Origin: Candidatus Iainarchaeum sp.
GTDB lineage: Archaea > Iainarchaeota > Iainarchaeia > Iainarchaeales > GW2011-AR10
Assembly (NCBI GenBank): GCA_016198165.1
Contig: JACQJF010000039.1
Span: 1 to 46,041, forward strand
Length of the DNA stretch: 46,041 nt
Direction: 5' to 3'
The number at the start of each line of letters is the position of its first letter. Position 1 is the stretch's first letter. The notes under the pieces were generated by a model that saw only the letters and a program-made list of their open reading frames with translations, searched no databases and was not told the DNA's origin. Below are positions 934 through 37,174 of this stretch, one piece after another. The position numbers and the translations under genes were made by a program.

Positions 934-1302
934 GTGATTCTCGACACATATGCCTGGATAGAGTTGTTCAATGGGACAACTAAAGGCAAAAAAGTAAAAG
1001 AACTCATAGCTTTAAACCAGTGCTTTACAAGTGCGATTTCTATTGCAGAGTTAAGCGAATGGGTAGAAAAAGAGAAGCTTGACAGAAAACAGGTTTTTCA
1101 CACGGTGAAAAACCTTTCAACCCTCATTGAGATAAGCCAAGATGATTTGGAGCTGGCGGGAATTTTGAAAACAGAAAAAAGAAAAACTGTAAAAGACTTC
1201 GGCATGATTGATTCAATAATTTTGGCGACAGCAAAAAACTATAAACTAAAAATTGTGACAGGGGACAAACATTTCAAAGGCGAAAACACGATAATGCTGT
1301 AA
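934..1302 (+). CDS. vapC: PIN-domain toxin (VapC-like ribonuclease)
   Basis: 122 aa. It has the N-terminal acidic motif ILDTYAWIE and the C-terminal DSIILATAKNYKLKIVTGDKHF characteristic of PIN domains. The start is immediately adjacent to the antitoxin stop. Confidence 0.8.
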   Translation: MILDTYAWIELFNGTTKGKKVKELIALNQCFTSAISIAELSEWVEKEKLDRKQVFHTVKNLSTLIEISQDDLELAGILKTEKRKTVKDFGMIDSIILATAKNYKLKIVTGDKHFKGENTIML

Positions 1303-3158: not shown

Positions 3159-4106
3159 TCACTTTATTTTTTCCGCGAGTTTTTCAAGCATGTCTTTTGT
3201 CATCGAGGCCAAATCGTATTTTGGTTTCCAGCCCCACTCCCTGCGCGCAGTGGAGTCGTCAAGGGATTTTGGCCACGAGTCCGCGATTGCCTGGCGGAAA
3301 TCAGGCTTGTAGTCTATCATGAATTCCGGGATATGTTTTTTGATTGACTCGGCCTGTTCTTTCGGCGAAAAGCTCATCGCGTTCACGTTGAAGTCGCAAT
3401 GGTGTTTTAGTTTTGAAATCGGGGCTTGTGCCAGGTCCATGATTGCCTTGAGGGCATCCGGCATGTACATCATGGGCAGGTAAGTGTCGGGCTTCAAGAA
3501 ACAGGTGTAACTTTTTTTCTTCAGCGCTTCGTAATAAATTTCAACCGCGTAATCGGTTGTCCCGCCGCCGGGGAGCGCTTCGCTGCTGATTATTCCCGGG
3601 AACCTCAACCCCCGCACGTCAAGGCCAAATTTTTTGAAGTAATAATTCCCCAGGAGCTCTCCTGCGACTTTTGTCACGCCGTACATGGTTGTCGGGCGCT
3701 GTATGGTCTCGTTTGGCGTGTTGTCGCGCGGCGTCTCGGGGCCGAATGCTGCAATGGAGCTTGGCATGATTATCCTTTCAAGTGGCAATTCGCGTCCGAT
3801 TTCAAGTGCATTGTATAACCCGTTCATGTTCACGTTCCACGCAAGGCCTGGGTTTTTTTCCCCGCTTGCAGAAAGGATTGAAACCAGGTGGTAAAGCGTG
3901 TCAATGCCGTGCTCTTTTATTTTTCCCTCAAATGCTTTTTTGTCAGTGACTTCGACAGAGTCACAGGGGCCTTCCATGAGTTTTTCCGATGGCTTGCTTT
4001 TATGCCCGATTGCAACCACGTTTTCGTTGCCGTATTTTTTCCTCAAAGCAGGCACCAATTCCGACCCTATCTGCCCAAAAGCTCCCGTCACCATGATTTT
4101 CCTCAT
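3159..4106 (-). CDS. NAD-dependent epimerase/dehydratase family, L-threonine 3-dehydrogenase-like
   Basis: Start taken at MRKIMVTGAFGQIGSEL (Rossmann GxxGxxG). The catalytic YGVTKVAGE (YxxxK) and the LRFPGIIS...PGGGTTDYAVEIY block are typical of extended-SDR TDH. The 76 codons upstream in the tracked ORF look non-coding and overlap repeat A. Confidence 0.8.
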   Translation of the reverse strand: MRKIMVTGAFGQIGSELVPALRKKYGNENVVAIGHKSKPSEKLMEGPCDSVEVTDKKAFEGKIKEHGIDTLYHLVSILSASGEKNPGLAWNVNMNGLYNALEIGRELPLERIIMPSSIAAFGPETPRDNTPNETIQRPTTMYGVTKVAGELLGNYYFKKFGLDVRGLRFPGIISSEALPGGGTTDYAVEIYYEALKKKSYTCFLKPDTYLPMMYMPDALKAIMDLAQAPISKLKHHCDFNVNAMSFSPKEQAESIKKHIPEFMIDYKPDFRQAIADSWPKSLDDSTARREWGWKPKYDLASMTKDMLEKLAEKIK

Positions 4107-4154
4107 TTTTCCACACCACTCCATTTTTTTTTCCATTGGAAGGATTTTCCAAGG

Positions 4155-4250
4155 TATAGCAAAGAGCATAAATATTTGAACTTTATAATTGCTCTTTGCA
4201 TAATAGCAAACTGCACCAAAAATGTTCAAAAATATAAGCAGTTTGCTATA
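4155..4250. repeat. double-hairpin repeat, copy A (96 nt)
   Basis: Hairpin 1 is gcaaagagca/tgctctttgc (10 bp) with a loop containing TTTGAAC. Hairpin 2 is atagcaaactgc/gcagtttgctat (12 bp) with a loop containing GTTCAAA. The outer ends are tatagca...tgctata. It is the reverse complement of 15746..15842 apart from a 1-nt indel. Confidence 0.85.
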
Positions 4251-4279
4251 TTTAAAACTGCAAAAATCTATTAAATGCG

Positions 4280-4816
4280 TCAGCGGCGCAAATGCCTGCG
4301 CTTTCTTGTGGCAATATTTATATTTCCAGACCACGTTCTGGAAATTTTTTCCGGTAGTTCTGGGGCTGGGGTTTTGCGGTTCCTGCCAAAGTGCCTCCGC
4401 GGGTATTCCCTCATTTTTTCGGCAAGGCTAAGCATTTCCGGGCTTTGATCATACCTTCTTATCCTGAACCCTTTTTTTCTTGCCATGCCTATGAGCCTGT
4501 AAGTCATTTTTGTCGCAATGCCCTGCCTTCGCAAGTTGCCCTCCACGACGTGTGTCATAGTTGTAACGATTAATTTTATTTGAGGGTGTTCAGAGTACGA
4601 GATTACTGCAACCGGTTTTGTGCCCAAAAACCCGAGCAAAAACTTGGCTCCTTGTTCCGCATCTTTTTTTATGCCATCAATTAGGTTTTGGAGGTGCCCT
4701 GCTGATGCTTCTGGAGTGTAGCCTTCTGCATAGGCTATTTTTCTTGCCTGTTCGTCTGTTATGCTTCCCTCGGCTACCTGGTAATGCAGGCTGATTCTTT
4801 TTTTCCCCGGCTCCAT
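4280..4816 (-). CDS. GNAT-family N-acetyltransferase
   Basis: Start taken at MEPGKKRISL (ATG 4816), 1 nt after the stop of the upstream 68-aa ORF. The acetyl-CoA motif region is VVEGNLRRQGIATKMTYRLIGMARKKGF. The Arg-rich C-terminal tail looks atypical. Confidence 0.7.
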   Translation of the reverse strand: MEPGKKRISLHYQVAEGSITDEQARKIAYAEGYTPEASAGHLQNLIDGIKKDAEQGAKFLLGFLGTKPVAVISYSEHPQIKLIVTTMTHVVEGNLRRQGIATKMTYRLIGMARKKGFRIRRYDQSPEMLSLAEKMREYPRRHFGRNRKTPAPELPEKISRTWSGNINIATRKRRHLRR

Positions 4817-4817
4817 T

Positions 4818-5024
4818 TCACTGCCTGTCGATTGTCTTGAGGAAATCGTGTTTTGCGCGCTCAAGCATGCCGACGACCATGTGGAGTTCTGCCTTTGACA
4901 TAGTGCTTGAGACAAAGCGCGTGTCGTCGCCTTCCTTAAAGGCAAAGAAAAAATACAGCGGCTCTACGCCCTGTTCTTTTGCTTCTTTTGAAAGCGCTTG
5001 TTTTAGTTTGTCTGCGTTTGACAT
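4818..5024 (-). CDS. small protein co-transcribed with the GNAT gene, unknown function
   Basis: 68 aa. GGAGGGAGA lies 6-8 nt upstream of its ATG and an A/T-rich box (ataatataaa) lies further upstream. The stop is 1 nt before the GNAT ATG. Confidence 0.45.
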   Translation of the reverse strand: MSNADKLKQALSKEAKEQGVEPLYFFFAFKEGDDTRFVSSTMSKAELHMVVGMLERAKHDFLKTIDRQ

Positions 5025-8344: not shown

Positions 8345-9538
8345 ATGAAAAATTTGCTTTTGTTTTTCCTGGCCGCTCTTGCAGTGCTTTTGGCGGGCTG
8401 TCTTGGGGGGAATATCTCGGGTTCTGCGTTCAGTGCAGACCCGTCTTTTTCAGTTGAAAAAGTGAGGCAGCTCATAAACGACCCCAACGTGCTGGTGACG
8501 GAGAAAACCCTTGGCGGAGCGGCGATTTCCGCAAGCCTTAACGGCGCGGCCGCAGGTTGTGTCGGCTTGCTTCCCGAAAAACAGTATGTCCTGGTAGAGG
8601 CTTCTGCCCCGGCGACGAATTATTCGATTGTGCTTGACGGCGACAAAGTCATGTGCGTCATGCGCAAGGAAAGGCTGGCTGACGAGTGCAGCACTGCCGG
8701 GGACTGTGATGACGGCCTGTCTTCAACGACTGACTCGTGCAGCGGAACGCCAAAAATCTGCCTCAGCCAGAGGACAACTGAGTGCAAAAGCGGGGATTCT
8801 TTTTGCCCCGCTTCCTGCCTGAAAGGCACTGACTCGGATTGCGTGAGGGAATGTTTCGTGGATTCCACGTGCGATGACTCGGACCTGACGACAAAAGATT
8901 ACTGCGGCGGGGCACTGCAGCGCTGTATCCACGAGAAATTGTTTGTGGGGGGCAAGGAAGTGATTGCATGCTCTGCTGACGAGGAGTGCGTTGCGGAAAA
9001 CGTGTGCAGCACGGGGTCATGCGTTGAAGGCCTGTGTGTTTTTGGTGTCAAGCCAAATGGCACGGTGTGTGATTCCTCCAAGGACATGGAGTGCTTTGAC
9101 GGGGAGTGCGTGAAGGCAACTGAAAATCCCATTCGCCTGGTTAAAACAAAACTTGAATGGGTTAATGATGATAGCCCTGCCGGGAAAGTCTTAGTAACTG
9201 CCAATGCAAGCAAGTTAAGTATTTTTGAGGGCAAGTATGGAACGGATTTATCCTTCATGAAATCGGTTTTTGACGTTGAATGTTCAACCGGGGCATGCTT
9301 CAAGAGAACCAGCATTGATCACTCGGTTGAATTCACGGACCTCGTAGTGGCACAAGAATATTATTATACTATTTTTGCATTCGGCTTGTCAGAGTTAACC
9401 GTTTCCAAGACAGAAACTTTGTCGTTTTTTACCTGCCCCGGTCGATGTGATGACTCTGACGAGTGCACTGCCGACTCGTGCGATATTTCAACCGGAAAAT
9501 GTGACTACAAAAAGGATGAACAAAACCCTTCCTGTTGA
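8345..9538 (+). CDS. secreted Cys-rich lipoprotein-like protein
   Basis: Signal peptide with a lipobox-like LLAGC. Three CDDxxxxTxDxCxxxxxxC motifs are present (CDDGLSSTTDSCSGTPKIC, CDDSDLTTKDYCGGALQRC, CDDSDECTADSCDISTGKC), plus a CxxGxC-rich stretch and a beta-rich middle domain. Confidence 0.7.
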   Translation: MKNLLLFFLAALAVLLAGCLGGNISGSAFSADPSFSVEKVRQLINDPNVLVTEKTLGGAAISASLNGAAAGCVGLLPEKQYVLVEASAPATNYSIVLDGDKVMCVMRKERLADECSTAGDCDDGLSSTTDSCSGTPKICLSQRTTECKSGDSFCPASCLKGTDSDCVRECFVDSTCDDSDLTTKDYCGGALQRCIHEKLFVGGKEVIACSADEECVAENVCSTGSCVEGLCVFGVKPNGTVCDSSKDMECFDGECVKATENPIRLVKTKLEWVNDDSPAGKVLVTANASKLSIFEGKYGTDLSFMKSVFDVECSTGACFKRTSIDHSVEFTDLVVAQEYYYTIFAFGLSELTVSKTETLSFFTCPGRCDDSDECTADSCDISTGKCDYKKDEQNPSC

Positions 9539-9637: not shown

Positions 9638-12600
9638 ATGAAGAGATTATTGCTGGTTTTTTCACTGTTTTTATTTTTCGGCCTGACTTCAGTGGCCCAG
9701 AACTCCTGCACTTACGAAAATTACTGGTATTGTTACTCGCAGGGCGAGTGCACGGGCGTTGGGCGCAACTGGTGCAGCACTTATTGTTCCTCAAGCGAGT
9801 GCCCCACTTGTTCTTCCCAAACCCCTTGGAATTGTTATGACCAGCCTTCGTGCACTGGTGCGGGCGGTTACTGGTGCAACAATTATTGCCAGTCTCAAGC
9901 ATGCCAGACTTGTTCATCACAATACCCTTCTTACTGCACTACTGAAGCAACCTGTACTTCTGCAGGCCTTTACTGGTGCAACGGATACTGCCAAAGTTCC
10001 TCGTGTGGCGGTGGAGGAGGTGGTTACTGTGGTGACGGCACGTGTAACAACAGTGAAACTTCCGGTTCGTGCCCTTCAGACTGCGGGGGAAACACATGCA
10101 GGGTAGGCTATTCTGGTTATTGTTACACTCAAGCAGATTGCACAGGCATAGGTGCCAATTGGTGCGGCAGTTGGTGTACAACCGGCAGCTGTCCCACTTG
10201 TTCTTCCCAAATGCCGGGTAATTGCAGCACGCAGTCTACTTGCACGGGGGCAGGCGCCAACTGGTGCCAGGGCGGCTCGGATTATCACTATTGCACTTCG
10301 AGTGTGTGCCCTGTCTGCTCAAGGGAATCTACGGGAAATTGTTATACCGAGGCTCAATGCACCACTGCGGGAGCCAATTGGTGCAGTGCGGGTAATAATG
10401 GCTGGTGCACTACGTCTTCGTGCCCCGTTTGTTCTTCTTCAACCCTGGGAAATTGTTATGACTCTGCCGCGTGCACCAATGCCGGTGCTTACTGGTGCAC
10501 TTCAAGCGGTGGTGGCGGTGGCTGGTGCAATAGTTCCCAGTGCCCGACCTGCAATTCCTCGAACCTGAGTTACTGCAGCACGCAGACTGACTGCACGACC
10601 GCGGGCGGCGCGTGGTGCAACGGGTATTGCTCGTACTCGTGCGGTGGCGGGGGGTACAACTACACATGCAGTTCGAACAACCCAAGCTATTGTTACTCTG
10701 AATCAGAATGCAGCACTGTTGGCGCACAGTGGTGCAAGTCAAGCGGTGGTGGCAGTGGCTGGTGCTCTTTTTCATGCCCTACTTGTTCTTCTTCGTCTGT
10801 CTGGAACTGTTATGATTCTTCTTCATGCAGTGGTGCCGGCGGCAACTGGTGCGGTTCCGGCAACAGTGCCTGGTGCAGCAGTTCTGCCTGTCCCGTTTGT
10901 TCTTCAGGCAACTATTGGAACTGTTATGACCAGGGTTCATGCACTACTGCCGGTGCACAGTGGTGCACGTCTTCTGCTGGCGGCAGTGGCTGGTGTTCAA
11001 ACTCGTGCCCTGTGTGCTCCAAGGATTCGGCGTGGAACTGTTATACCCAGGGCGAGTGCAGCACTGCGGGTGCACAGTGGTGCACAAGCGGTTATGGCTC
11101 CGGTTGGTGCTCGACTTCCTGCCCGGTCTGCTCCTCTTCTTCAACCTACAATTGTTACACTGAATCGGAATGCACTACAGCAGGCGCAGAGTGGTGCGGC
11201 ACTTACTGTTCCTCGTCATGCCCGGTTTGCAACAAGGAGCAGCCCTGGAGCTGTTACAACAAGGACGCCTGCACGGGAGCGGGGGCGCAGTGGTGCGGCA
11301 CTTATTGTTCATCCAGCTGCCCGACTTGTGCAAACTCCCAGTTGTGGAATTGCTATGACGAGTCCTCGTGCACTGGTGCAAGCGGGAGCTGGTGCGAGTC
11401 ACAAAGCATGTCCAGTTATTCTTATTCTTCGGGTTGGTGTTCATCTTCCTGCCCGACCTGCTCTTCTTCAAGCGCGTGGAATTGTTATGACGAGTCCTCG
11501 TGCACTGGTGCGAGCGGCAACTGGTGCAAGTCAGGCGGCGGCTATGGCTGGTGCTCGACTTCCTCGTGCCCTGTCTGCAGCAAGGACCAGACGTGGAGCT
11601 GCTACACCAAGTCAGACTGTACGACTGCGGGGGCCAATTGGTGCGGTTCGGAGGCAAGCGGGTGGTGCTCGACTTCCCAGTGCCCGACATGTTCTTCAAG
11701 CAATTACTGGAACTGTTATGATGACTCCTCCTGTACAAGTGCGGGTGCGAAGTGGTGCCAGACAAGCAGCGGCTCTGGGGTTTCTGGCGGCAGTTCGGGT
11801 TATTGTTCTTCAAACTGCCCCACGTGTTCTTCTTCCAGCACGTGGAATTGTTTTTCCGAGTCAACCTGCAAGGCGGCTTCCGCCAATTGGTGCACGGGCA
11901 AAGGCGGTTACGGGTGGTGCTCCACCTATAACTGCCCGTCATGCGGCAAGTCAAGCCCCGGCAACTGCTCCACGCAGGGCCAGTGCACGGGCGCGGGCCT
12001 TGAATGGTGCGATTCAGGCAGCGGTTCGGGCTGGTGCAGCACGTCCTGCCCCAAGTGCTCTTTGGAGAAACCGGGCAATTGCCTTAACCAGTCAAGCTGC
12101 ACAAGCGCGGGTGCAGAGTGGTGCGGCTCGTATTGTGTCGCGGACTCGTGCCCGTCATGTGACCTTTCAAGCCCCTGGAACTGCGTGACCGAGAGCACGT
12201 GCGCCGGCGCGGGGGGAAAATGGTGCTCTGACGCAAGCGGTGAAGGCTCTTTTTGCGGAACTTCCTGCAAAGTGTGCGAGGTTTCAAACCTCGCCAACTG
12301 CCTCTCAGAAGACTCGTGCGTGAATGTCGGGGGCAATTGGTGCGGTTCCTGGTGCAGTGACACTGCATGCCCATTGTGCGACCCGGATAAGCCCGAGAGC
12401 TGCCAGACAAAAGTCGACTGCGAAGCGGTTGGCGCCAAGTGGTGTGCGTCAAAAGACGGGGCTTTTTACTGCAGTGAAACCTGCCCAGTGTGCAATGAAA
12501 GCGAGTTGTACAATTGCTCTGACCAGGCTACCTGCAACAGCGTTGGCGGAGATTGGTGCGGTTCATATTGTTCAACAGAATGCCAGGTGTGCTCTGACGA

Positions 12601-15301
12601 GTCCCCGTGGAGCTGCCTCTCGCAGGGAGATTGTGATGCCTCCGGCGGCGAGTGGTGCGGAAGCCAGGCAGAGGGCTGGTGTTCCGAGTCATGCACGGAA
12701 TGCACCGCCGATGACTTTGCAAGCTGTGCCACCCAGTCAGAGTGCCTTGAAAGCACTGGCCAGTGGTGCGTTGACCCGGCAACAGGGACAAGTTATTGCG
12801 CAGCTTCATGCGGTGCATGTTCAATTGAAACCCCGTGGAACTGCCTTGGCTCCGCCGACTGCGGGGCGACAGGCGGGACCTGGTGCGGTTCTTATTGCTC
12901 GGCAGGTTCCTGCAGTGAATGCAAACAAGACCACCCGTGGAACTGCGCAAGCTTTAGTTCATGCGAGGAAATAGGCGCGAATTGGTGCCTGCCACAGGGA
13001 AGCGGGTATGGCTACTGCTCCGGCGAAGAATGCTCCAAGTGTTCCACTCAAACGCCATGGCTTTGCCTTGACGAGACAAGCTGTGTTGAAAACAGCGCCA
13101 ATTGGTGCGGAACCTACTGTTCAACCGGTTCCTGCCCTGTGTGTGACCAGCAAACACTTTCCAATTGCTTTACCAAGGAATCCTGCCAGGAAACGGGCGG
13201 CGATTGGTGCGTTTCAGCCACCGCAAACAACGGCTGGTGCTCGAATTCCTGCCCTGTGTGCGACAAGGATTCCCCGTGGAACTGTTACTCTGAACAGGAG
13301 TGCCTCGGGGCAAACGCGCAATGGTGCGCAAGCAGCGGCAGTTCAAGCGCCCAAAACACTTCTTATTACGCCGGTTCCTCCTATTGTTCCAATTCTTGCC
13401 CGACCTGTTCAACCGAAACCGCTTGGAATTGCGGCGACAAGGACTCGTGCCTCTCAAACGGCGGCAACTGGTGCGGGAATTACTGCTCCACTTCTTCGTG
13501 CCCGATTTGTTCTCCCGACTCGCAGTGGTACTGTTACACGGAGCAGGCCTGCCAAACGGCAGGCGGCAATTGGTGCAACTCGCACTGCTCCTCAAGCACA
13601 TGCCCGGTTTGCACAGGCGAAGACCCGTGGAGTTGTTACAGCCAGGAATCCTGCACAGAAGCAGGAGCCCAGTGGTGCGGAACCTATTGTTCTACAAACT
13701 GCCCTTCGTGCAGCAATGATTCCTCGTGGAATTGCTCCACGAAAGAAACCTGCCTTGGCGTCGGCGCCAATTGGTGCGCCACTTATTGTTCCACCCAGGC
13801 GTGCCCCCAGTGCACAGGCGAAAACCCCTGGGCATGCACGGACGAAGAAACCTGCGGTGGTGTGAGTGGCAATTGGTGCCAACCCACTTGGGAGGGAGGG
13901 AAAGGATGGTGCACGGATTACTCGTGCCCCGCTCCGCAATTGTACGCGGTGTGCGGTGACGCGGCATGTGAAAGCGGCCTTGGCGAAAACAGCCTTAACT
14001 GCTCCAGGGATTGTGAAGCACAGCCGCCAGTGACTGCTTCCCTTGACTGCCGTGACGTGCTTGACGAGGCAACAGGCTTCACCAGGACAGAGTGCACAGG
14101 CGGGCCAGTTGAAGAGCACGTGTGCTTTGAAGAACCCCAAGGAGTGCTTGATACTTGTTTGTCTGTAGGTGGAATACCGGAAAACCTGGTTGACGAGTTC
14201 GGCTGCCCACTCACAAACTGCGTCCTGCCTGGTGCGACAGAGGAGATTTTCCTTGAAAAAGAATGCCTGCCACAAGAACAGGTAGACTTGTTTGTTTCCG
14301 AGTGTGAAAAAAACGGGTTAAAACCGGTGGTTGAGGCGGGCATTGACGGGTGCTTTGAACCGCGCTGTGAAGGGCATGAAGAGACGCTCACAGAGTCATG
14401 CAGGCAATACACGCCGGAAGAAATAAGCGAGGCGGAAAACAATTGCGCAGTGCAGTTAGGTGCCCTGGATTACAGGTTTAACGAGAACGGCTGCAAGGAA
14501 CCTATGTGTGTCACGCTTAACGAGAACCTGTGCTACCAGGTTCCAGAGGGGGCAAAGAAGCTCTGTGCGGCAGACGGCGGGGAAATGGTTGAAGTAAGGG
14601 ACGAGGCAGGGTGTGTGACTTACTCATACTGCCTGGGCAGTGCAGGCAGTGACTTTGAATTCGAGCCTGTGAAACAACTGCCCTCGCGCGAAGAAATAGA
14701 CGCAGTGATTGACGAGCTTGCAGGGCTCCAGGCGGCAATAGAAGTAGTCGCGGAAAAACTCGGCACCCTGAAGACATTTTTCGAATCCGCGTCAGACACC
14801 ACTAACATGCACAAGGTTGAAGTCGCAAAATCAATGCTTGAAGGCTCTGCGGAATCCCTCCGGGAAATGAGGGAGTTTTTGTTCCAGAATTCCTCATCCG
14901 TCACGGTTGAAGAACTCTCGGGATTCAGGGCGGAACTTGGGAACATAAGCAAGTCGCTTGAAAAAGCCCTCGGAGTCCTACTCGGGGCATTTGGCACTGG
15001 CACTGCGGAGGAAAACAATTGCGGCTCGAACATGGATTGCCTCCAGGATAACTTGTCGACCTGCACGCCATCAACCGCGACCCTGTTTGACACTGGAGTA
15101 ACTTTCAACGTTTCAATCGAAGGCATTGAAGGGCAAAGATGCTCCATGAACGTTGACGCGGTTGTGGATAACGAGCCATTGTCAATGGCCTGCAGGTATG
15201 CCGGGTATGCCAACGGCGCCCTGGGCGGAGAGGACACGGAAGGCTTTTTGGATTCATGTGAAGGCACTCTTTTGGAGTACATGCTCTTGAAGGTAGAGTG
15301 A
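9638..15301 (+). CDS. giant secreted cysteine-rich tandem-repeat protein (1887 aa)
   Basis: Sec signal MKRLLLVFSLFLFFGLTSVAQ, then about 36-38 modules of 33-49 aa with the pattern C-P-x-C-x7-C-x5-C-x7-(W)C-x3..17-(W/Y)C. These are followed by four 4-Cys modules, a helical Cys-free stretch and a terminal Cys-containing domain. It is the only frame with a coherent repeat architecture. Confidence 0.85.
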   Translation: MKRLLLVFSLFLFFGLTSVAQNSCTYENYWYCYSQGECTGVGRNWCSTYCSSSECPTCSSQTPWNCYDQPSCTGAGGYWCNNYCQSQACQTCSSQYPSYCTTEATCTSAGLYWCNGYCQSSSCGGGGGGYCGDGTCNNSETSGSCPSDCGGNTCRVGYSGYCYTQADCTGIGANWCGSWCTTGSCPTCSSQMPGNCSTQSTCTGAGANWCQGGSDYHYCTSSVCPVCSRESTGNCYTEAQCTTAGANWCSAGNNGWCTTSSCPVCSSSTLGNCYDSAACTNAGAYWCTSSGGGGGWCNSSQCPTCNSSNLSYCSTQTDCTTAGGAWCNGYCSYSCGGGGYNYTCSSNNPSYCYSESECSTVGAQWCKSSGGGSGWCSFSCPTCSSSSVWNCYDSSSCSGAGGNWCGSGNSAWCSSSACPVCSSGNYWNCYDQGSCTTAGAQWCTSSAGGSGWCSNSCPVCSKDSAWNCYTQGECSTAGAQWCTSGYGSGWCSTSCPVCSSSSTYNCYTESECTTAGAEWCGTYCSSSCPVCNKEQPWSCYNKDACTGAGAQWCGTYCSSSCPTCANSQLWNCYDESSCTGASGSWCESQSMSSYSYSSGWCSSSCPTCSSSSAWNCYDESSCTGASGNWCKSGGGYGWCSTSSCPVCSKDQTWSCYTKSDCTTAGANWCGSEASGWCSTSQCPTCSSSNYWNCYDDSSCTSAGAKWCQTSSGSGVSGGSSGYCSSNCPTCSSSSTWNCFSESTCKAASANWCTGKGGYGWCSTYNCPSCGKSSPGNCSTQGQCTGAGLEWCDSGSGSGWCSTSCPKCSLEKPGNCLNQSSCTSAGAEWCGSYCVADSCPSCDLSSPWNCVTESTCAGAGGKWCSDASGEGSFCGTSCKVCEVSNLANCLSEDSCVNVGGNWCGSWCSDTACPLCDPDKPESCQTKVDCEAVGAKWCASKDGAFYCSETCPVCNESELYNCSDQATCNSVGGDWCGSYCSTECQVCSDESPWSCLSQGDCDASGGEWCGSQAEGWCSESCTECTADDFASCATQSECLESTGQWCVDPATGTSYCAASCGACSIETPWNCLGSADCGATGGTWCGSYCSAGSCSECKQDHPWNCASFSSCEEIGANWCLPQGSGYGYCSGEECSKCSTQTPWLCLDETSCVENSANWCGTYCSTGSCPVCDQQTLSNCFTKESCQETGGDWCVSATANNGWCSNSCPVCDKDSPWNCYSEQECLGANAQWCASSGSSSAQNTSYYAGSSYCSNSCPTCSTETAWNCGDKDSCLSNGGNWCGNYCSTSSCPICSPDSQWYCYTEQACQTAGGNWCNSHCSSSTCPVCTGEDPWSCYSQESCTEAGAQWCGTYCSTNCPSCSNDSSWNCSTKETCLGVGANWCATYCSTQACPQCTGENPWACTDEETCGGVSGNWCQPTWEGGKGWCTDYSCPAPQLYAVCGDAACESGLGENSLNCSRDCEAQPPVTASLDCRDVLDEATGFTRTECTGGPVEEHVCFEEPQGVLDTCLSVGGIPENLVDEFGCPLTNCVLPGATEEIFLEKECLPQEQVDLFVSECEKNGLKPVVEAGIDGCFEPRCEGHEETLTESCRQYTPEEISEAENNCAVQLGALDYRFNENGCKEPMCVTLNENLCYQVPEGAKKLCAADGGEMVEVRDEAGCVTYSYCLGSAGSDFEFEPVKQLPSREEIDAVIDELAGLQAAIEVVAEKLGTLKTFFESASDTTNMHKVEVAKSMLEGSAESLREMREFLFQNSSSVTVEELSGFRAELGNISKSLEKALGVLLGAFGTGTAEENNCGSNMDCLQDNLSTCTPSTATLFDTGVTFNVSIEGIEGQRCSMNVDAVVDNEPLSMACRYAGYANGALGGEDTEGFLDSCEGTLLEYMLLKVE
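9707..13925 (+). repeat. in-frame tandem array of ~100-150-nt coding repeats
   Basis: The codon series TGCCC(N)(N)(N)NTG(C/T)... recurs, encoding CPxCS...WNCY...C..AGa.WC...GWCS.S. Neighbouring units can be near-identical over about 45 nt (for example 11351-11400 vs 11484-11533). Confidence 0.8.
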
Positions 15302-15306
15302 AAAAA

Positions 15307-15708
15307 ATGCGCCAGGTTGAATTGTTTGGCAGGAAAGTCGACGCGATTGTCATAATAGCAGTAGTCACGATAATCGCGGGCCTCGCTTTTTATGCTTACA
15401 CCGGCTTGTCCCCAAAGCAGGGAAAACCGTCAGGGGAGCTTGAGCAGCAGATAGCGGAGAGGATAAAAGCCGGGATTTCCGTGGACTCAAAGGAGGACGC
15501 GCGCGACTCGATTGCCTCAATCAGCCAGGAGCTGGAAAACCTCCGCGGAGCGGTCTCAAAAGCAAACAATGGCCTTGAAGGAAAACCATCGACCGGCCCC
15601 ACGGGCCTCGTGTTCTTTGCGCAAGTCGCGATAACCCTGGCAATCCTTGCCTCGCTTGCCGCACTCCTATTCCACTTCGCAGTCACGCGCGGAAAAAACC
15701 TCAAATAA
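15307..15708 (+). CDS. two-TM membrane protein (N- and C-terminal anchors)
   Basis: ATG 15307 lies 6 nt after the giant gene's stop; the tracked ORF starts at GTG 15298, overlapping that stop. It has an N-terminal helix AIVIIAVVTIIAGLAFYAY, a hydrophilic helical middle, and a C-terminal helix LVFFAQVAITLAILASLAALLFHFAV plus a basic tail TRGKNLK. Confidence 0.6.
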   Translation: MRQVELFGRKVDAIVIIAVVTIIAGLAFYAYTGLSPKQGKPSGELEQQIAERIKAGISVDSKEDARDSIASISQELENLRGAVSKANNGLEGKPSTGPTGLVFFAQVAITLAILASLAALLFHFAVTRGKNLK

Positions 15709-15709
15709 G
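15670..15709 (+). repeat. 40-nt direct repeat, copy 1 (3' end of CDS 15307..15708)
   Basis: ttccacttcgcagtcacgcgcggaaaaaacctcaaataag differs at one position from 16681..16720. The last 31 nt are identical. Confidence 0.9.
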
Positions 15710-15745
15710 TTTTTATATTTGGCCCAATAACAAACCGCCAGTATC

Positions 15746-15842
15746 TATAGCAAACTGCTTATATTTTTGAACATTTTTGGTGCAGTTTGCTATTTATGCA
15801 AAGAGCAATTATAAAGTTCAAATATTTATGCTCTTTGCTATA
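15746..15842. repeat. double-hairpin repeat, copy B (97 nt; inverted relative to copy A)
   Basis: It is the reverse complement of 4155..4250 with one extra t (gctatttatgc vs gctattatgc). It lies between convergent gene ends, 37 nt after direct-repeat copy 1. Confidence 0.85.
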
Positions 15843-15863: not shown

Positions 15864-16250
15864 TTATGCAATAGCTTTTATTTCCGCCAGTTTCTTAGGC
15901 TTTAGATTTACGAGCGGCAGTATGAGAATCTCTTTTGTAACTTTTGGTAGAATGTTTTTTCCTTTCTTTTCCAGTTCAATTATGCGGAATTTTTCCAATA
16001 GTTTCAAATCCCTTAAAACAGCGCTAAGCTGTCTGCCAGTCAGCTCACTTAGTTTTGTGGCATTTTTTGGTTTTTTGGCCTGGATCAGCCTCACCAGTTC
16101 CAGTCTTTTCTTTGTGAAAACTCGTGTTATCTCATCATCAGACAGGCTAAGCAAAATGCCCTCATCCGGGTACTTGCCCGGGTTTTTGAATACCCTGTCA
16201 AGGTAGTGTTTTACTGAATTCCATCTTTCATCAGTCATTTTATACGCCAT
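15864..16250 (-). CDS. HTH DNA-binding protein (putative antitoxin/regulator)
   Basis: 128 aa. A winged-helix segment is RLELVRLIQAKKPKNATKLSELTGRQLSAVLRDLKLLEKFRIIELEKKGKN. It starts 6 nt after the stop of the upstream 109-aa gene. Confidence 0.6.
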   Translation of the reverse strand: MAYKMTDERWNSVKHYLDRVFKNPGKYPDEGILLSLSDDEITRVFTKKRLELVRLIQAKKPKNATKLSELTGRQLSAVLRDLKLLEKFRIIELEKKGKNILPKVTKEILILPLVNLKPKKLAEIKAIA

Positions 16251-16256
16251 TTTTTT

Positions 16257-16586
16257 TCACCTCAGCTTCATTCTATCTAAATAATATTTTTTGTATCTTT
16301 CAAAGTTTTCTTTTATTTGATCCAAATAAAAATTGAAAATGTCATTCAAGTCCTTTCCCATGGCCGGAATAGGGATTGGCTCTGGCGTAATCCAATATCT
16401 TTGTTCATGCAAAAACCCATGTGCAGTGTCAACCCTGTAAACCTCGTAAAAACTTTCCTCTATTTTTGTCCTGTAATTCAGCGCAAACGCTTCCACTATA
16501 TTGTTTTCAATTTTGAGTTTTACGTCGAGGAAATCCATTGAAGTCAAGGGGATTGTAAACTTTTTCCACTTTATCACGACAACCAC
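16257..16586 (-). CDS. small protein, putative toxin partner (DUF6516/TumE-like is only a guess)
   Basis: 109 aa with a GTG start. The motif YRVDTAHGFLHEQRYW and the pairing with a downstream HTH gene resemble type II TA layouts. The family name comes from memory of the motif style only. Confidence 0.4.
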   Translation of the reverse strand: MVVVIKWKKFTIPLTSMDFLDVKLKIENNIVEAFALNYRTKIEESFYEVYRVDTAHGFLHEQRYWITPEPIPIPAMGKDLNDIFNFYLDQIKENFERYKKYYLDRMKLR

Positions 16587-16653: not shown

Positions 16654-16719
16654 AAAATTGTCTCCATTGCAGCGCTTTTGTTCCACTTTGCAGTCACGCG
16701 CGGAAAAAACCTCAAATAA
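16654..16719 (+). pseudogene. displaced 3' end fragment homologous to the C-terminus of CDS 15307..15708
   Basis: It encodes KIVSIAALLFHFAVTRGKNLK*, compared with the intact ...ASLAALLFHFAVTRGKNLK*. Upstream of the 40-nt repeat the differences are mostly synonymous (gca gcg ctt ttg vs gcc gca ctc cta). It is preceded by an in-frame TAA and has no start codon. Confidence 0.6.
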
Positions 16720-16720
16720 G
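16681..16720 (+). repeat. 40-nt direct repeat, copy 2
   Basis: ttccactttgcagtcacgcgcggaaaaaacctcaaataag. See copy 1. Confidence 0.9.
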
Positions 16721-16755
16721 CTTATATACCAGTTTAACCGTTTTTTTTTTTTTGC

Positions 16756-18603: not shown

Positions 18604-18827
18604 GCAACTCTAAGTCAACATTTTTTTCCCCATTAGATTTTTATGCTTCTTTCCAGCTTTCTATTTTCCTGCTTTCTGCGTGCATAAGCGCGGGCTGCCA
18701 AAAAAACTTTTTCAGTCCAAAAGCTTTTATATGTATTTTTACATATGGTTGTATGTATTTTTACTAGTGGTGTTTTTTTGTGGAATTTGGCGAAACGGAT
18801 TCAAAGGTTCCAAAATCAGGAATAGCT

Positions 18828-19280
18828 ATGGAAAGAGCCCTAAATGGCTGCATCAAAAGAAAGAGAATCCAGGGCTTCTCCAAAGAGGATGCCAAGACTT
18901 TTTTGGCCAAAGCACATTATCATTTGCAGACAGCAGAGTCTTTTGAATCTGACAGTTTCTTGGACTGGGCAGTAATTGCTTATTATTCCGGCATGTACAT
19001 GGCGGCTAAAGCTTTTACCGCGCATTTTTCTGGCACTGCTGCAAAAGACCATGGCTGCACTATCGCCTTAATGCTCCAGGTTTTGAAGGGAAAAAAGTTT
19101 GCCAAAAAGCTTGGCAGCGCGAGAAAAAAATTTGAGCAGGAGATAGAACTGCTTGGAAAAGTAAGGCAGTACCGGAACAGCGCCTTATACACTGTCACTG
19201 AGGTTAAGGAAAACGACGTGAGAAAAATTGCAAAGAATGCTTTTGAATTCGTGGAAGAGATTGATAAACTGTTGAAGTGA
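18828..19280 (+). CDS. HEPN-domain protein
   Basis: The helical protein has AKAHYHLQTAESF... and the conserved late motif RQYRNSALY. It overlaps the downstream MNT gene (GTGA at 19277-19280). Start uncertain: ATG 18828 or GTG 18780. Confidence 0.7.
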   Translation: MERALNGCIKRKRIQGFSKEDAKTFLAKAHYHLQTAESFESDSFLDWAVIAYYSGMYMAAKAFTAHFSGTAAKDHGCTIALMLQVLKGKKFAKKLGSARKKFEQEIELLGKVRQYRNSALYTVTEVKENDVRKIAKNAFEFVEEIDKLLK

Positions 19281-19900
19281 GCGAAAAAATGCTGTTGCAA
19301 AAGTCAAGACAAAGGGTTCTTTCTGCAATTCTCCGGAACCCAGGCATACATGTAAATGGGCTGATAAGGCTGGTGGGTTCGCTTAGAGGTATCAAGGGAA
19401 TTTTGGATGAACTTGAGAAAGCCGGGTTGATTTATTCAAAGCACGTTGGAAACATAAGGCAGATTTTTCCATTGCTTGGCAGCTCTTTCAGCGTTTCAAC
19501 TTTTGAATTGGTTGAAGAACAGGAAAAACAGGGTGTCATGTCAAAGTTTTCAATAGCTAAAAGTCTTGTCGGGCGTATTGATTTATTCAAAAAGATTTTT
19601 GGCCAAGAACTTGTTTCCATTGCGCTTTTTGGTTCAATAGCGAGGGGGCATTTAACTGAAACATCCGACATAGATATATTGTTCATTGTCAAAAAGGAAA
19701 AAACAGTGCAAAAAAACAAATTGGTCAAATTGTTTCAGACAATCAGCCTCAACACTGGCCGGGAAATAAACCCCGTAATAATTGAAGAAGGCGAGTTCAA
19801 AAAACAGTTGACCAAAGACAGTTCTTTTGCAAGGCAGGTGCAAAAAGAAAGGATAATACTGTGCAATCCAAAGGAATTCCTGTCACTGCAAAACATTTGA
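19277..19900 (+). CDS. wHTH + minimal nucleotidyltransferase (MNT) protein
   Basis: An N-terminal wHTH (RVLSAILRNPGIHVNGLIRLVGS...LEKAGLI) is followed by the NTase signature LFGSIARGHLTETSDIDILFIV. An alternative ATG start is at 19289. Confidence 0.8.
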   Translation: MSEKMLLQKSRQRVLSAILRNPGIHVNGLIRLVGSLRGIKGILDELEKAGLIYSKHVGNIRQIFPLLGSSFSVSTFELVEEQEKQGVMSKFSIAKSLVGRIDLFKKIFGQELVSIALFGSIARGHLTETSDIDILFIVKKEKTVQKNKLVKLFQTISLNTGREINPVIIEEGEFKKQLTKDSSFARQVQKERIILCNPKEFLSLQNI

Positions 19901-28290: not shown

Positions 28291-29238
28291 TCAATGTTTT
28301 TGTATTTGCCTGTAATTTTCTTTGATTTGTTCCACTAAAAACTTTGTGAAACCTTTATAGTTTTGGTTGTGCCCTTCTTCCTGGGCTTGGAAGTATTCAT
28401 CCCTTTTTTTTACGGGTATATTAGTGAACGGAAACCCGTTTTTTTGAAGTATATAATTCATCAGGAGTCGTGCCATTCTGCCGTTCCCGTCAGCGAAGGG
28501 GTGTATTGTTGTGAATGAACAGTGAAGTTTTGCCGCTAGTTCCACTGGATGAACCGATTGTTTCTGTTTGTTGTATTGTTCAATGAGCTTTTTCATTAAA
28601 GCGGGCACATGCTTGAAGTGGGGGAATTCAAATTTGCTTGTTCTTATTTCCACGTCAACAGGCCTCCATATTCCTTTGTACTTGTCATAATCGGGAACCT
28701 CGTTGAGCAGAATATAGTGGAGCTGAAGAATCATCACGTCGTCAATTTTCCTGTCGATTTTTAGGTATTGGTCATACCGTTCAAGGCATTTTTCCATATT
28801 CAGGACTTCCAGTCTTTCCCTTTCACTGCCTATTTTGATTTTTTTGTGGAGTATTTTTTTGGTTTCGTCAAGGGTCAGGGTTGAGCCTTCTATTGCGTTG
28901 GTATTTGTGATGAACTTGTCCCTTTCAGCTTCAAGCCACTTTTTTTTCTCGCTTGTACTGAGGCCTTGTATGAACTCTGTGGTTTCTTGTTTTATCCTTT
29001 CAAGTGATTTTGCTGTTTTAACGTCGATGAATTCAGTGCCCTGCTTGACCAATTCGGTCTGGTAGTACTCCTCAATTTGCTTTCGGATGTTTTTTTCATG
29101 GCCCCCAAGCGTTGTTTTTGTGGGTTTTTTGTGTCCAAGATATTCTGAGAATTTTTTGAATTCTTTTCCTATCCTGATGTTTTGCTCCAGGTAGTAATAA
29201 GTTTTGCCTTTTACTTTCCTGCTGACTAGATAGGCCAT
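28291..29238 (-). CDS. Fic/DOC-family protein (AMPylase-type motif)
   Basis: Fic motif HPFADGNGRMARL. The N-terminus MAYLVSRKVKGKTYYYLEQ is paralogous to the second Fic protein. A TATA-like ttttataaatt lies about 27 nt upstream of ATG 29238. Confidence 0.85.
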   Translation of the reverse strand: MAYLVSRKVKGKTYYYLEQNIRIGKEFKKFSEYLGHKKPTKTTLGGHEKNIRKQIEEYYQTELVKQGTEFIDVKTAKSLERIKQETTEFIQGLSTSEKKKWLEAERDKFITNTNAIEGSTLTLDETKKILHKKIKIGSERERLEVLNMEKCLERYDQYLKIDRKIDDVMILQLHYILLNEVPDYDKYKGIWRPVDVEIRTSKFEFPHFKHVPALMKKLIEQYNKQKQSVHPVELAAKLHCSFTTIHPFADGNGRMARLLMNYILQKNGFPFTNIPVKKRDEYFQAQEEGHNQNYKGFTKFLVEQIKENYRQIQKH

Positions 29239-29294
29239 AAAAGTTATAACCACAAAACAATTTATAAAAGGTGGTGATAACTTGTTCAGATTGG

Positions 29295-30129: not shown

Positions 30130-31134
30130 TTATAAATTCTTTTGGTGCGTTCCTGTGCCGGTGTTTGTCTTCTTTGTCATCTTTTCCAGAATTGCCTTTT
30201 TGTTTTCTGTGATTATTTTTCCTATTTCCTGTGCTCTTTTTTCGAGGCAGAGGCAAATGAATTTTGAAAATTTATTGTACTCCCTGTTTATTTGCACTCT
30301 TTCAAGCAGTGCTATGTAGCTTTCCCTGTTTTCAAGGTTTATTATTGCCTTGGGATAACCATTAAGCCTTAGCATAGTATTCAGTATTTCCCTGCCTGTT
30401 CTCCCGTTGCCGTCATTGAATGGGTGAATTTCCTCAAATCTTGCGTGGAATTCTGACGCCAGTTCCACGGGGTGTATTTTTGCCGTATTTTTTCCAAGCC
30501 ACTCAAAAAGTGTGCCCATCCCTTTTTTGATTTTGTCGGCTGATGGCGGTTTAACTTCGGACGCAGTTATGAACATGGGGCCTGCCCTGTATTCTCCAGG
30601 GGTTTTTTCATCAAATCCATTCATGATTGCTGAATGGATTTTTTTTATGCCCCGTTCGTTTACTTCCATGAGTTTCCCTGAAACATCTGCTGCAAGTTTC
30701 ATATTTTCCATTTCCCTGATTTCCTCGATTTTTTTTCCTGCAACAGCCACCCCTTTCTCCAAGACTAGCGCCGCTTCCTTCTGTGTCAGGGAATTTCCCT
30801 CGACTGATGCGCTTCCTTGGGCGTATCGTATGAACTCGTCTTCTTTGAATGCTTCAAAGCTCTGCGGAAAAAAAGCCTGCAAAAGCCCATAATCGACTTT
30901 TAACCTTTCAAGTGTCAATTGTTCACTAATTGACAGGATATTCGTTTTGAATTTTTTTTGCGAGATTTTCAGTCTTTCCAGCGTGGTTTTTTGGGTTAAT
31001 TCATCAAATGCACTTTCAATACCGCCTGAAACTCTTTCTTTTCTTCCCAGTGAAATGCTGATGCGTTTCCCGTTTACACGGTCTTCCAGGTAATAATAGC
31101 TTTTTCCGCTGATTTTTCGCTTTGAAATAAACAT
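30130..31134 (-). CDS. Fic/DOC-family protein
   Basis: Fic motif HPFNDGNGRTGRE. The N-terminus is MFISKRKISGKSYYYLED. A TATA-like tatttttatag lies about 27-33 nt upstream of ATG 31134. Confidence 0.85.
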   Translation of the reverse strand: MFISKRKISGKSYYYLEDRVNGKRISISLGRKERVSGGIESAFDELTQKTTLERLKISQKKFKTNILSISEQLTLERLKVDYGLLQAFFPQSFEAFKEDEFIRYAQGSASVEGNSLTQKEAALVLEKGVAVAGKKIEEIREMENMKLAADVSGKLMEVNERGIKKIHSAIMNGFDEKTPGEYRAGPMFITASEVKPPSADKIKKGMGTLFEWLGKNTAKIHPVELASEFHARFEEIHPFNDGNGRTGREILNTMLRLNGYPKAIINLENRESYIALLERVQINREYNKFSKFICLCLEKRAQEIGKIITENKKAILEKMTKKTNTGTGTHQKNL

Positions 31135-31199
31135 AAGAATAATTAACACCAAAAACTATAAAAATAGTTATTTTGTACCAAGTTGGTGTTAACTGAGGA

Positions 31200-36065: not shown

Positions 36066-37174
36066 TCAAAACCACTCCTTTTTTTTTCCTCCACTAATTT
36101 TTGTTTTTTCTCTAATTTAAGCTTTTTCTTGGCATTCCCCCCGATTATGAAAAGGACTCCAAAGGCAATCAGCACGATAAGCAATGGGCTTGTTTCGGGA
36201 ATAGTGGTCCCGGTAGTGCCCAAGAGAATTGTTATATATGCTATGTCGTGGTTGTTTTCCGGTACCGGGTCACTTGGGTAATTTGCAACGGCTTCCAAAA
36301 TATAGGAATCCGACTGGACGTTTTCCGGGATTGAAAGCTCCACATTGAGAATGTTTTGCCCTGGGTCAAGCACGGCGTTTTCTATCGTTCCTTTGATTTC
36401 TGGTTCTGTGTCCTTTACATAGTACTCAATTCTTGCCATGCCTGGAACAGTTATTTGCTCGCCGGTAAAATTGGTGACAGCCAATTCGAGGTAAATTGTT
36501 CCGGGCGTGTAAAAAGTGGTTGTTTCCCTCCTGTCCGGTTCTCCCGGCGGGCCGTTAAATGCTTTAAGGGAAAGTTTCAGCATGTCCTCCTCTATTTCGG
36601 TTTCGTCAGTGCAGTACACTTTCAGAAAACCAGGTTCAGTTGGTGTCCGGCCGCACGCGTAGACATGCGCATTGTTTTCAGAAGAGAGGCCAAAGACACA
36701 CTCGCTTGCAGAAAAATTGCCAGGAGGCGTGTCAGAGGATTGGTGTGCTTCGCAGCGGATTTCGCCTGTGGAGTTCATGCACAATGGATAGTCATAGTTT
36801 TCGCCCCACTTAAAAGTGTTGTCATTGTCTATTGGAAACTCTGCGTGCGCGTTTGACTCGTCGGACAAGGCAGTGTATGTCGATTCAGGCTGGCCAATGC
36901 AGGCATAGTCAAGCACCTTGTCCCCGTCTAAATCGTCGAGCGTGGTTTTGGTTGCCCTGCAGCACACGCCTATGTCATAAATCGGGTCGGGGCCGCTGTA
37001 GTCCGGCATTTGGGCATGGGTGTTTAAGGTGTCATACATGCGGAGCACTAAAAGCGAGCCAGGCAAGGCATCGTCACAGCTCTGGCCAGGGTCCGTAGTC
37101 CTGCATTCAAGGAGCGCGCTTGCATTAATGGATAGGTAAATTGCCAGGAGCAGGAAGAATGCCTGTTTTTTCAT
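36062..37174 (-). CDS. surface protein X: signal peptide, Cys-containing domain with three N(T/A)HA motifs, CARDB-like domain, C-terminal TM + Lys-rich tail
   Basis: Start taken at MKKQAFFLLLAIYLSINASA (ATG 37174). Motifs LNTHAQMP, ESNAHAEFP and ENNAHVYAC are present. A CARDB-like segment is ELAVTNFTGEQ...VPENNHDIAYITIL, and the anchor is LLIVLIAFGVLFIIGG + KKKLKLEKK. Confidence 0.7.
   Translation of the reverse strand: MKKQAFFLLLAIYLSINASALLECRTTDPGQSCDDALPGSLLVLRMYDTLNTHAQMPDYSGPDPIYDIGVCCRATKTTLDDLDGDKVLDYACIGQPESTYTALSDESNAHAEFPIDNDNTFKWGENYDYPLCMNSTGEIRCEAHQSSDTPPGNFSASECVFGLSSENNAHVYACGRTPTEPGFLKVYCTDETEIEEDMLKLSLKAFNGPPGEPDRRETTTFYTPGTIYLELAVTNFTGEQITVPGMARIEYYVKDTEPEIKGTIENAVLDPGQNILNVELSIPENVQSDSYILEAVANYPSDPVPENNHDIAYITILLGTTGTTIPETSPLLIVLIAFGVLFIIGGNAKKKLKLEKKQKLVEEKKRSGFE

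Follow-up and report, generated by a model that had tools for sequence, protein, structure and literature searches.

Bacterial genomes are shaped by small palindromic repeats of the REP (repetitive extragenic palindromic), BIME (bacterial interspersed mosaic element), and REPIN (REP doublet forming hairpins) types, whose enzyme partner is well studied. To our knowledge, no repeats of this kind have been reported in archaea, where transposons of the IS200/IS605 family are common. The best-fitting archaeal category is that of the Haloquadratum walsbyi repeats SMR-A and SMR-B; these are non-coding sequences of 80–110 bp whose terminal inverted repeats are related to no known transposon, which make no target duplication, and whose mode of mobilization is unknown (PMC3119063). 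Here we describe a double-hairpin repeat in contig JACQJF010000039.1 of Candidatus Iainarchaeum sp. The window, by which we mean the whole 46,041-nt stretch that was analyzed, is a complete contig. It carries three copies (denoted A, B, and C), all of them members of a family of non-coding 92–97-bp repeats that is confined to Iainarchaeota and Micrarchaeia. DPANN genomes are among the smallest and most streamlined cellular genomes, so several copies per 50 kb call for explanation.

Copies A and B are reverse complements, exact except for one linker base, an extra A/T between the hairpins of B (ATAA vs. ATAAA). Their inverted-repeat arms (4155–4203 with 15794–15842, and 4202–4250 with 15746–15794; 49 nt each) are 100% complementary, in agreement with the original prediction, made from the sequence alone, of two near-identical inverted copies differing by a single 1-nt indel. 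Homology stops precisely at TATAGCA and TGCTATA, and the flanking DNA is unrelated. Folding the plus strand of copy A returned the two proposed hairpins, with perfect stems of 10 bp and 12 bp and loops of 21 nt and 23 nt (−31.5 kcal/mol, z = −4.8); none of 200 shuffled sequences was equally stable. The loop words and ends were also as first described (Table 1). Copy C, which that prediction overlooked, is diverged: its stems (CAGGCGACA/TGTCGCCTG and GCAAATGAC/GTCATTTGC) are wholly unlike those of A and B, and its ends, loop words, and spacing are identical. All six half-sites of the three copies have the same outside-to-inside orientation and the same spacing. A covariance model of the repeat family (R1), scanned on both strands, found exactly three copies in the window with near-equal scores on the two strands (100.7 bits on the plus strand and 99.1 on the minus strand for A, 98.3 and 96.7 for B, 84.2 and 83.0 for C). 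Copies A and B are far beyond chance, with E-values of ∼1e-14.

We scanned public collections for the pattern TATAGCA-N13-TTTGAAC-N(34–52)-GTTCAAA. The genome collection yielded 50 loci, ∼30 of them from DPANN archaea, and the metagenome collection 18 more; ∼45 loci, from Iainarchaeota and Micrarchaeia genomes and from metagenomes, have the double-hairpin architecture. The DPANN hosts include several metagenome-assembled genomes (MAGs) of Candidatus Iainarchaeum, the complete genome of archaeon GW2011_AR10 (AR10), and MAGs of Micrarchaeia and Bilamarchaeaceae. Further hosts are two MAGs labeled Woesearchaeota and Thaumarchaeota, and archaeon E14_maxbin.202 (E14), the closest relative of the window organism (84%–88% nucleotide identity over 5 kb, with one protein at 90%). 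In the NCBI taxonomy, the hosts cover two phyla. At least eight copies occur in the ∼43 kb of AR10 that were sampled, and the window has three in 46 kb. The repeats thus almost certainly form a dispersed family of DPANN archaea. The original prediction had pictured a repeated, probably mobile, non-coding element whose further copies should be sought elsewhere; copy C and the relatives in related genomes bear it out. Full-text literature searches found no prior description of the family, which is apparently new.

The viral contigs held no genuine family member. Their one full-pattern match was due to chance, and none of their 36 single half-site matches had hairpins (best score 27.8 bits, fold z-score +0.44). 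In Rfam 15, only a tRNA in the window reached its gathering threshold; the best match on the element scored 30 bits against a threshold of 70. The rest of the genome-collection matches were isolated chance matches, apart from those in Nostocales. The Nostoc and Rhizonema matches represent one or two conserved loci built around one long inverted repeat; their R1 scores are <30 bits, and we set them aside as unrelated. The cyanobacterial locus (Nostoc L002, L003, L005, L010, L021, and others; Rhizonema/Scytonema L036, L037, L041) has an inverted repeat of ∼100 nt that is built as one long hairpin and contains the words of the family, identically spaced (TATAGCAAT-N-TTTGAAC ... GTTCAAA-N13-TGCTAT). 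This likeness is probably a coincidence amplified by orthology.

All family members share one layout: (T/A)ATA-GCAAA-stem-[TTTGAAC loop]-stem'-TTTGC, a linker of 2–6 nt, and GCAAA-stem-[GTTCAAA loop]-stem'-TTTGC-TAT(A/T). The foot of each hairpin follows the consensus (T/A)ATAGCAAA, with TATA-GCAAA conserved. Between foot and loop stand two to five freely covarying stem pairs, and the loops measure 19–23 nt. Across the 31 non-redundant members, on which all family fold statistics rest, the heptamer words and the foot-to-loop spacing are invariant. The stems vary: there are >20 distinct stem sequences in the family, every one of them paired. Two hairpin types can be told apart by their loops, alpha (...TTTTTGAAC, with TT before TTTGAAC) and beta (...TATTTGAAC, with TA before TTTGAAC). 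Since 28 of the 31 elements pair one alpha with one beta hairpin, the doublet has a polarity.

Pairing in the double hairpin is clearly maintained. In this fold, 94.7% of alignment cells are paired, compared with 74.7% after shuffling (0 of 500 shuffles reached the observed value) and at most 45% with slid partners. Both sides have changed in 17 of 19 stem pairs (covariation score 0.593 vs. 0.193 shuffled), and all four Watson–Crick pairs occur at the central two or three stem positions. Compensatory change can be followed at close range: one subfamily contains a switch from CAGGCGACA/TGTCGCCTG to CGGGCGACA/TGTCGCCCG, and two copies in locus L004, 400 bp apart, differ by two compensatory switches. 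The original prediction noted that the complementary loop words could pair with each other. Such pairing is possible, but the fold built on it, a long single hairpin that joins TTTGAAC to GTTCAAA and one inner arm to the other, is no better paired than expected (83.1% vs. 83.9% shuffled) and has no covariation. At its variable positions, 22 and 25 of the 31 sequences fail to pair, and it has a constant 2 × 2 mismatch. With DNA parameters, the double hairpin was the minimum-energy fold in 56 of 62 strand-folds, at a mean of −19.6 kcal/mol vs. −14.0 for the forced long hairpin. Selection thus acts on two separate hairpins. Almost all pairs are Watson–Crick and G.U-type pairs are very rare, which together with the near-equal strand scores points to an element that works at the DNA level.

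The elements are intergenic without exception. Of the 27 that we classified by spacer type (ORF cut-off 90 aa), eight were in convergent, 10 in tandem, and nine in divergent spacers. Against a background of 21% convergent, 59% tandem, and 20% divergent, the single deviation was a mild avoidance of tandem, operon-type spacers (P ∼ 0.03). A preference for convergent spacers obtained with a 70-aa cut-off vanished with the 90-aa cut-off and a proper background. The polarity of alpha and beta relative to flanking transcription is mixed, and one element (L013) lies 39 nt upstream of a Pfam-verified N terminus. The window copies had been described as sitting just 3' of gene ends. This holds for B, on which two genes converge, but as a general property of the family it is not supported. 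Copy A occupies a spacer between two minus-strand genes. It follows the stop codon of a weak GNAT-like gene (4280–4945) by 29 nt and precedes the start codon (4106) of an NAD-dependent epimerase gene (3159–4106) by 48 nt, so it does not simply mark a gene end. A longer ORF that spans copy A (3159–4334) is an artifact; the Pfam domain begins at residue 5 of the short version. Neighbors across the family are housekeeping genes, including those for an RNA polymerase subunit, GTPases, aminoacyl-tRNA synthetases, and ribosomal proteins. Two candidates for associated genes were rejected: an ORF family recurring at four loci is a generic S-adenosylmethionine-dependent methyltransferase, and what the elements bracket in L004 and L030 are small ORFs for unrelated hydrophobic peptides.

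No element boundary has a flanking duplication of 2–9 bp. The ends had been judged compatible with a TA target duplication, and 26 of 31 elements do read TA-TAGCA...TGCTA-TA. In one subfamily, however (L004, L013, L015, L022, and L025, from three MAGs), AATA always stands on the beta side and TATA at the other end; because this asymmetry is fixed, the terminal TA/TATA belongs to the element, and the proposed duplication is not supported. Neither flank has a strong target motif; there is a weak A at −3, and G is scarce at −1.

Element positions are not conserved. In the syntenic pair L009/L011 (66%–76% nucleotide identity), the L011 element occupies a 150-nt spacer between the second and third genes, the orthologous L009 spacer measures ∼35 nt and has no element, and the L009 element has no counterpart in L011. 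Two other comparisons were set aside as empty sites. The indels between L056 and L060 (13 and 51 nt) do not involve the elements. In L049, from E14, the element lies inside a longer stretch that the window lacks, so this is not a clean empty site. That stretch (L049:2106–3840) is a 1.7-kb insertion between convergent genes that abut in the window at 27619/27621; it holds the family element (2505–2598), a 61-aa ORF, and a 228-aa RNase H-like or exonuclease-like ORF. The phnE-like gene beside copy C was also rejected as an anchor for an orthologous site, as its nearest homolog is ∼60% identical and there is no usable synteny.

Near-identical copies occur both within and between genomes. Copy C is 93%–95% identical to AR10 copies, variable stems included, with no alignable flanking DNA, and an orthologous protein of the window and AR10 is 42% identical. 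Copies A and B are identical to each other at unrelated sites and only ∼85% identical to E14 elements, so they were copied after the split from the E14 lineage. Decayed copies, broken and internally duplicated, are present as well (L030:3264–3381, L059:682–788), which means that stem pairing is not automatic. AR10-like DNA has clusters of as many as six elements within 12 kb, and many members of the family stand at contig ends (L019, L062, L014, L064, L065). In AR10 and an AR10-like contig, mixed subfamilies and degenerate copies lie within a few hundred bases of one another (L030:2734–3517; L067:3275–5659 and 10763–11546). Such clusters suggest insertion hot spots or insertion beside existing copies.

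Table 1. Positions of the three repeat copies and their parts in the window
Feature	Position	Length	Stem arms	Loop	Loop word	Remarks
Copy A	4155–4250	96 nt				Beta-alpha on plus strand; TATA at 4155–4158
Copy A, hairpin 1			4159–4168 / 4190–4199	4169–4189	TTTGAAC 4175–4181	
Copy A, linker	4200–4202					
Copy A, hairpin 2			4203–4214 / 4238–4249	4215–4237	GTTCAAA 4224–4230	
Copy B	15746–15842	97 nt				Alpha-beta on plus strand; reverse complement of A
Copy B, hairpin 1			15747–15758 / 15782–15793		TTTGAAC 15766–15772	
Copy B, hairpin 2			15798–15807 / 15829–15838		GTTCAAA 15816–15822	
Copy C	37432–37524	93 nt				Subfamily different from A and B
Copy C, hairpin 1			37437–37445 / 37465–37473 (CAGGCGACA)		TTTGAAC 37452–37458	
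Copy C, hairpin 2			37478–37489 / 37512–37523 (ATAGCAAATGAC)		GTTCAAA 37498–37504	
Bipartite terminal repeat	e.g., 4155–4181 (plus strand)	27 bp				TATAGCA, exactly 13 nt, TTTGAAC
Terminal-repeat half-sites (n = 6)	4155–4181, 4224–4250, 15746–15772, 15816–15842, 37432–37458, 37498–37524					

On balance, and with moderate confidence, we read the family as a duplication-free, hairpin-dependent, non-autonomous mobile repeat. We favor this reading because dispersed near-identical copies coexist with decaying ones, positions are not conserved, identity crosses lineages, the strands are symmetric with Watson–Crick pairing, and two hairpins are under selection. An element would insert into intergenic DNA without duplicating its target, and its copying would require both hairpins to be intact. 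A structure-specific enzyme encoded elsewhere would mobilize it in trans, recognizing the foot together with the heptamer in DNA that is folded and most likely single-stranded, in the way that HUH/Y1 enzymes act on REPs, IS200/IS605 ends, or rolling-circle origins. We favor mobilization in trans as single-stranded DNA because the arrangement of the elements, in which a free stem separates a conserved foot from a conserved loop word at constant distance, resembles HUH substrates. The missing target duplication argues against DDE transposases, IS630/Tc1 included, and leaves HUH/Y1, serine, and DEDD enzymes as candidates. An HUH-type single-strand mechanism in particular, suggested by this analogy, is a tentative proposal.

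Several observations weigh against mobility. None of the loci compared (L009/L011, L049/window, L056/L060) provides an empty site at nucleotide resolution, such as the original prediction had hoped for to define the ends. In the window, Pfam scans of ∼40 ORFs detected neither transposases nor integrases nor HUH proteins, as that prediction had said of transposases; the transposase it hoped to find elsewhere did not emerge from the wider search either. No HUH...Y signature was found in ∼339 kb of locus DNA (a regular expression on six-frame translations gave one non-convincing match), and no transposase family, RAYT (REP-associated tyrosine transposase) and tyrosine recombinases included, recurs among 185 neighboring ORFs. 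There is no tnpA or tnpB gene near the elements. Absence from the viral contigs means that no vector for horizontal spread was seen. Archaea have been found to carry only classical Y1 transposases of the IS200 type (Quentin et al. 2018; PMC6006769). Finally, the invariance of heptamer, spacing, and length over two phyla could equally mean a host function, and an exapted RNA or DNA-binding role is the main rival for this reason.

A more specific version of the mobile-repeat reading, which we regard as possible but doubtful, is that the family is the first archaeal REP/REPIN-type system: long-lived, mainly vertical replicators kept by a conserved single-copy loop-binding enzyme in Iainarchaeota and Micrarchaeia. 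Either a domesticated HUH protein or an enzyme of a new class might fill this role, and its specificity would lie in the loop heptamer and the fixed foot-to-loop distance, not in the stem. Secondary host roles are possible, with TATA-containing ends beside promoters and elements as cassette boundaries, as at copy B.

Of the host functions, a structured cis-acting RNA (a bidirectional terminator or a 3'-end stabilizer transcribed within neighboring mRNAs, a role that bacterial REPs have, or else a small RNA gene) whose copies are kept for that function survives best, although we think it unlikely. Strong stem covariation around conserved loops is typical of functional RNAs, the family is conserved across phyla, a T-rich loop is encountered first from either side, and in the window, B and C come after the 3' end of a gene or tRNA. 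The two strands, however, are equivalent, orientation to transcription is mixed, the spacers are divided among all three classes, and some copies lie just upstream of start codons, as noted for copy A and L013. G.T mismatches exceed A.C mismatches 14 to 2 on the alpha-first strand, as an RNA would predict, but this excess is mostly inherited inside subfamilies and G.U pairs are very rare. No Rfam family comes close to threshold, and an RNA kept for its function does not sit well with unconserved positions and decayed copies.

Slightly less likely still is an array of host DNA-binding sites, in which a conserved DPANN protein of architectural or regulatory function would bind the TATAGCA-N13-TTTGAAC half-sites or an extruded cruciform, and the sites would have spread by recombination or gene conversion. 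The fixed start-to-start spacing of the two words (20 bp, or about two helical turns), the dyad symmetry, the invariance of the words over two phyla, the housekeeping neighborhood, and the failure to find a transposase in the window, the ∼339 kb, or the 185 ORFs all fit such a protein. Binding to a duplex, on the other hand, needs no stem complementarity, and complementarity is clearly maintained. Nor would it account for whole elements, stems included, that are near-identical across genomes as distant as the window and AR10, or for copies that change position and decay.

A classical miniature inverted-repeat transposable element (MITE) of a DDE transposon of the IS630/Tc1-mariner type, with duplication of a TA target, is very improbable. 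The ∼27-bp terminal inverted repeats with two sub-sites, the TA-TAGCA...TGCTA-TA ends of most elements, and the size are all typical or compatible, but the AATA of the five-element subfamily is inherited with the element, no other duplication of 2–9 bp is present at any boundary, and a DDE mechanism leaves the internal hairpin covariation unexplained.

We give hardly any credence to attC-like sites of an integron-type cassette system, whose functional form would be the single long hairpin. Archaeal integrons are known (PMC9668308), the perfectly complementary heptamers end in AAC and begin with GTT like attC R boxes, elements bracket small ORFs in L004 and L030, and copy B stands at the 3' end of a two-gene toxin–antitoxin-like unit between a gene's 3' end and its 71-nt duplicate. 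Yet the selected fold is the double hairpin and not the long one, attC sites have nothing that corresponds to the conserved outer arms, and TTTGAAC and GTTCAAA each depart from RYYYAAC/GTTRRRY at two positions. Moreover, neighboring elements are not co-oriented (A vs. B; L030), their spacing ranges from 0.1 to 11 kb, and the window lacks a tyrosine recombinase, as none is recurrent among the neighbors of elements either. Equally remote is the idea that A and B do not belong to a dispersed family but bound an 11.5-kb segment that is invertible, a composite transposon, or a segmental duplication. Identical inverted copies at that distance could support inversion, which is possible as a consequence and not as the explanation. 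Homology, however, stops exactly at the element ends with unrelated flanks (extended flanking homology is what the original prediction had named as evidence of a segmental duplication), there is a third copy, relatives elsewhere number in the dozens, and the A–B interval has no transposase and no compositional island except one GC-rich repeat gene.

That repeat gene is a giant ORF (9638–15301, 1887 aa) made of dozens of diverged repeats of ∼34–38 aa rich in Cys and Trp (C..C......W.C......C......W-C). Its GC content reaches 58%, and it has no Pfam match. An ORF upstream of it (8345–9538, 397 aa) has a weak Dictyostelium-type Cys repeat, and homologs lie near elements in AR10 and in a LacPavin MAG. 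Around copy B, a direct repeat of 71 nt (15647–15717 and 16658–16728, 85% identical) flanks ∼940 bp that hold the copy and a toxin–antitoxin-like pair (HVO_A0114 family, 15864–16250; DUF7718, 16257–16586). The left repeat is the 3' end of a gene (15298–15708), and in the right one, where the changes are synonymous, the coding of that C-terminal peptide (AALLFHFAVTRGKNLK*) is retained. The segment looks like a cassette integrated into the 3' end of the gene, with the end brought in or regenerated.

Copy C lies between a tRNA-Ile gene and the phnE-like permease gene, 48 nt 3' of the former and 39 nt 3' of the latter. Of 42 family loci, five contain a tRNA gene and in none does it adjoin the element, so the position of copy C beside a tRNA is coincidental. 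The tRNA (37295–37383), the only one in the window, was called tRNA-Tyr(ata) by ARAGORN; because its anticodon loop reads CUGAUA in the Rfam alignment, with a 16-nt insertion after it, it is a tRNA-Ile(GAU) with an archaeal intron at the canonical position. The window also has three tandem paralogs (33138–34508, 34674–36065, and 36062–37210; 456, 463, and 382 aa) without Pfam matches, the first two of which share stretches of 75%–96% nucleotide identity with a 1560-nt period. Toxin- and defense-type genes are dense in the window (934–1302, 18780–19900, 28291–29253, 30130–31152), with a PIN domain, a HEPN and nucleotidyltransferase pair, and two Fic/DOC genes. Several window proteins match families named after Haloferax proteins; like the tRNA intron, this marks the window as archaeal. 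An exact-protein search with the DsbA-like gene had no match.

The more than 20 stem variants around an invariant loop word at a fixed distance amount to a natural experiment that defines what a partner protein recognizes, and a recognition target so defined makes the search for that protein tractable. The elements also break MAG assemblies, and they can be used as lineage markers for Iainarchaeota and Micrarchaeia.

Among known systems, stem-loop origins of HUH Rep proteins, found in CRESS-DNA viruses, geminiviruses, and rolling-circle plasmids, likewise combine a conserved loop and a freely covarying stem with a motif at a fixed position relative to that stem. Such an origin is a single hairpin per replicon beside a rep gene, whereas the DPANN repeats are dozens of chromosomal doublets with no rep gene. 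MITEs of the IS630/Tc1-mariner type are distinguished by their TA duplication, which the DPANN repeats lack, and by ends that match an autonomous transposon of the same genome; among the collected loci, no gene is flanked by solitary half-elements. The attC site is defined as an imperfect single hairpin with R''/R' and L''/L' boxes and extrahelical bases (PMC9668308), and that fold does not covary here. Arrays of attC sites are co-oriented, with short ORFs between them and intI next to them; DPANN repeats are of mixed orientation and irregular spacing, and no tyrosine recombinase was found with them.

Palindrome-associated transposable elements (PATEs) and IS200/IS605 transposons, which move by peel-and-paste of single-stranded DNA through a Y1 TnpA, share with the DPANN repeats a palindrome near each end, the lack of target duplication, and, as proposed here, the need for a hairpin in recognition. 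PATEs have no terminal inverted repeats and their palindromes are direct on one strand; the DPANN repeats have 27-bp inverted ends and reverse-complementary loops. PATEs and IS200/IS605 insert 3' of a specific target of 4–6 nt that stands on the left side only; no such target is seen on either flank here. The original prediction had also likened the hairpins to the ends of IS200/IS605-derived elements; this comparison does not hold, given inverted hairpins, true terminal inverted repeats, no one-sided target motif, and no Y1 gene in ∼339 kb. The SMRs fit as a descriptive category: the DPANN repeats agree with them in size, terminal inverted repeats, lack of target duplication, and lack of coding capacity. 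SMR-A is described as targeting palindromes of IS605-type elements, whereas the DPANN repeats enter ordinary intergenic DNA, and the consulted passages of the description do not mention a double hairpin with covarying stems and a conserved loop motif (PMC3119063).

The nearest bacterial analogs in anatomy, as the original prediction rightly sensed, are REP doublets (BIMEs and REPINs), which are moved by RAYT (TnpA-REP, a Y1 HUH enzyme). REP-RAYT systems have a single-copy RAYT, typically flanked by REPs, and none was seen in the window, the ∼339 kb, or the 185 neighboring ORFs. In REPs, it is the stems that are conserved, with a 5' tag of GTAG or CGTC, whereas the invariant motif here lies in large loops; REPINs conserve a long hairpin around a variable spacer, whereas here separate adjacent hairpins are selected across a linker of 2–6 nt; and the host is archaeal. 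Both are extragenic, multicopy, non-coding sequences of ∼100 bp without target duplication and with housekeeping neighbors, and in both, compensatory changes preserve hairpin pairing. As in BIMEs, two inverted palindromic units are joined, often of two variants (Y and Z in BIMEs, alpha and beta here). The DPANN family would thus be a small palindromic mobile repeat and, as far as we found, the first with the anatomy of a REP doublet in archaea.

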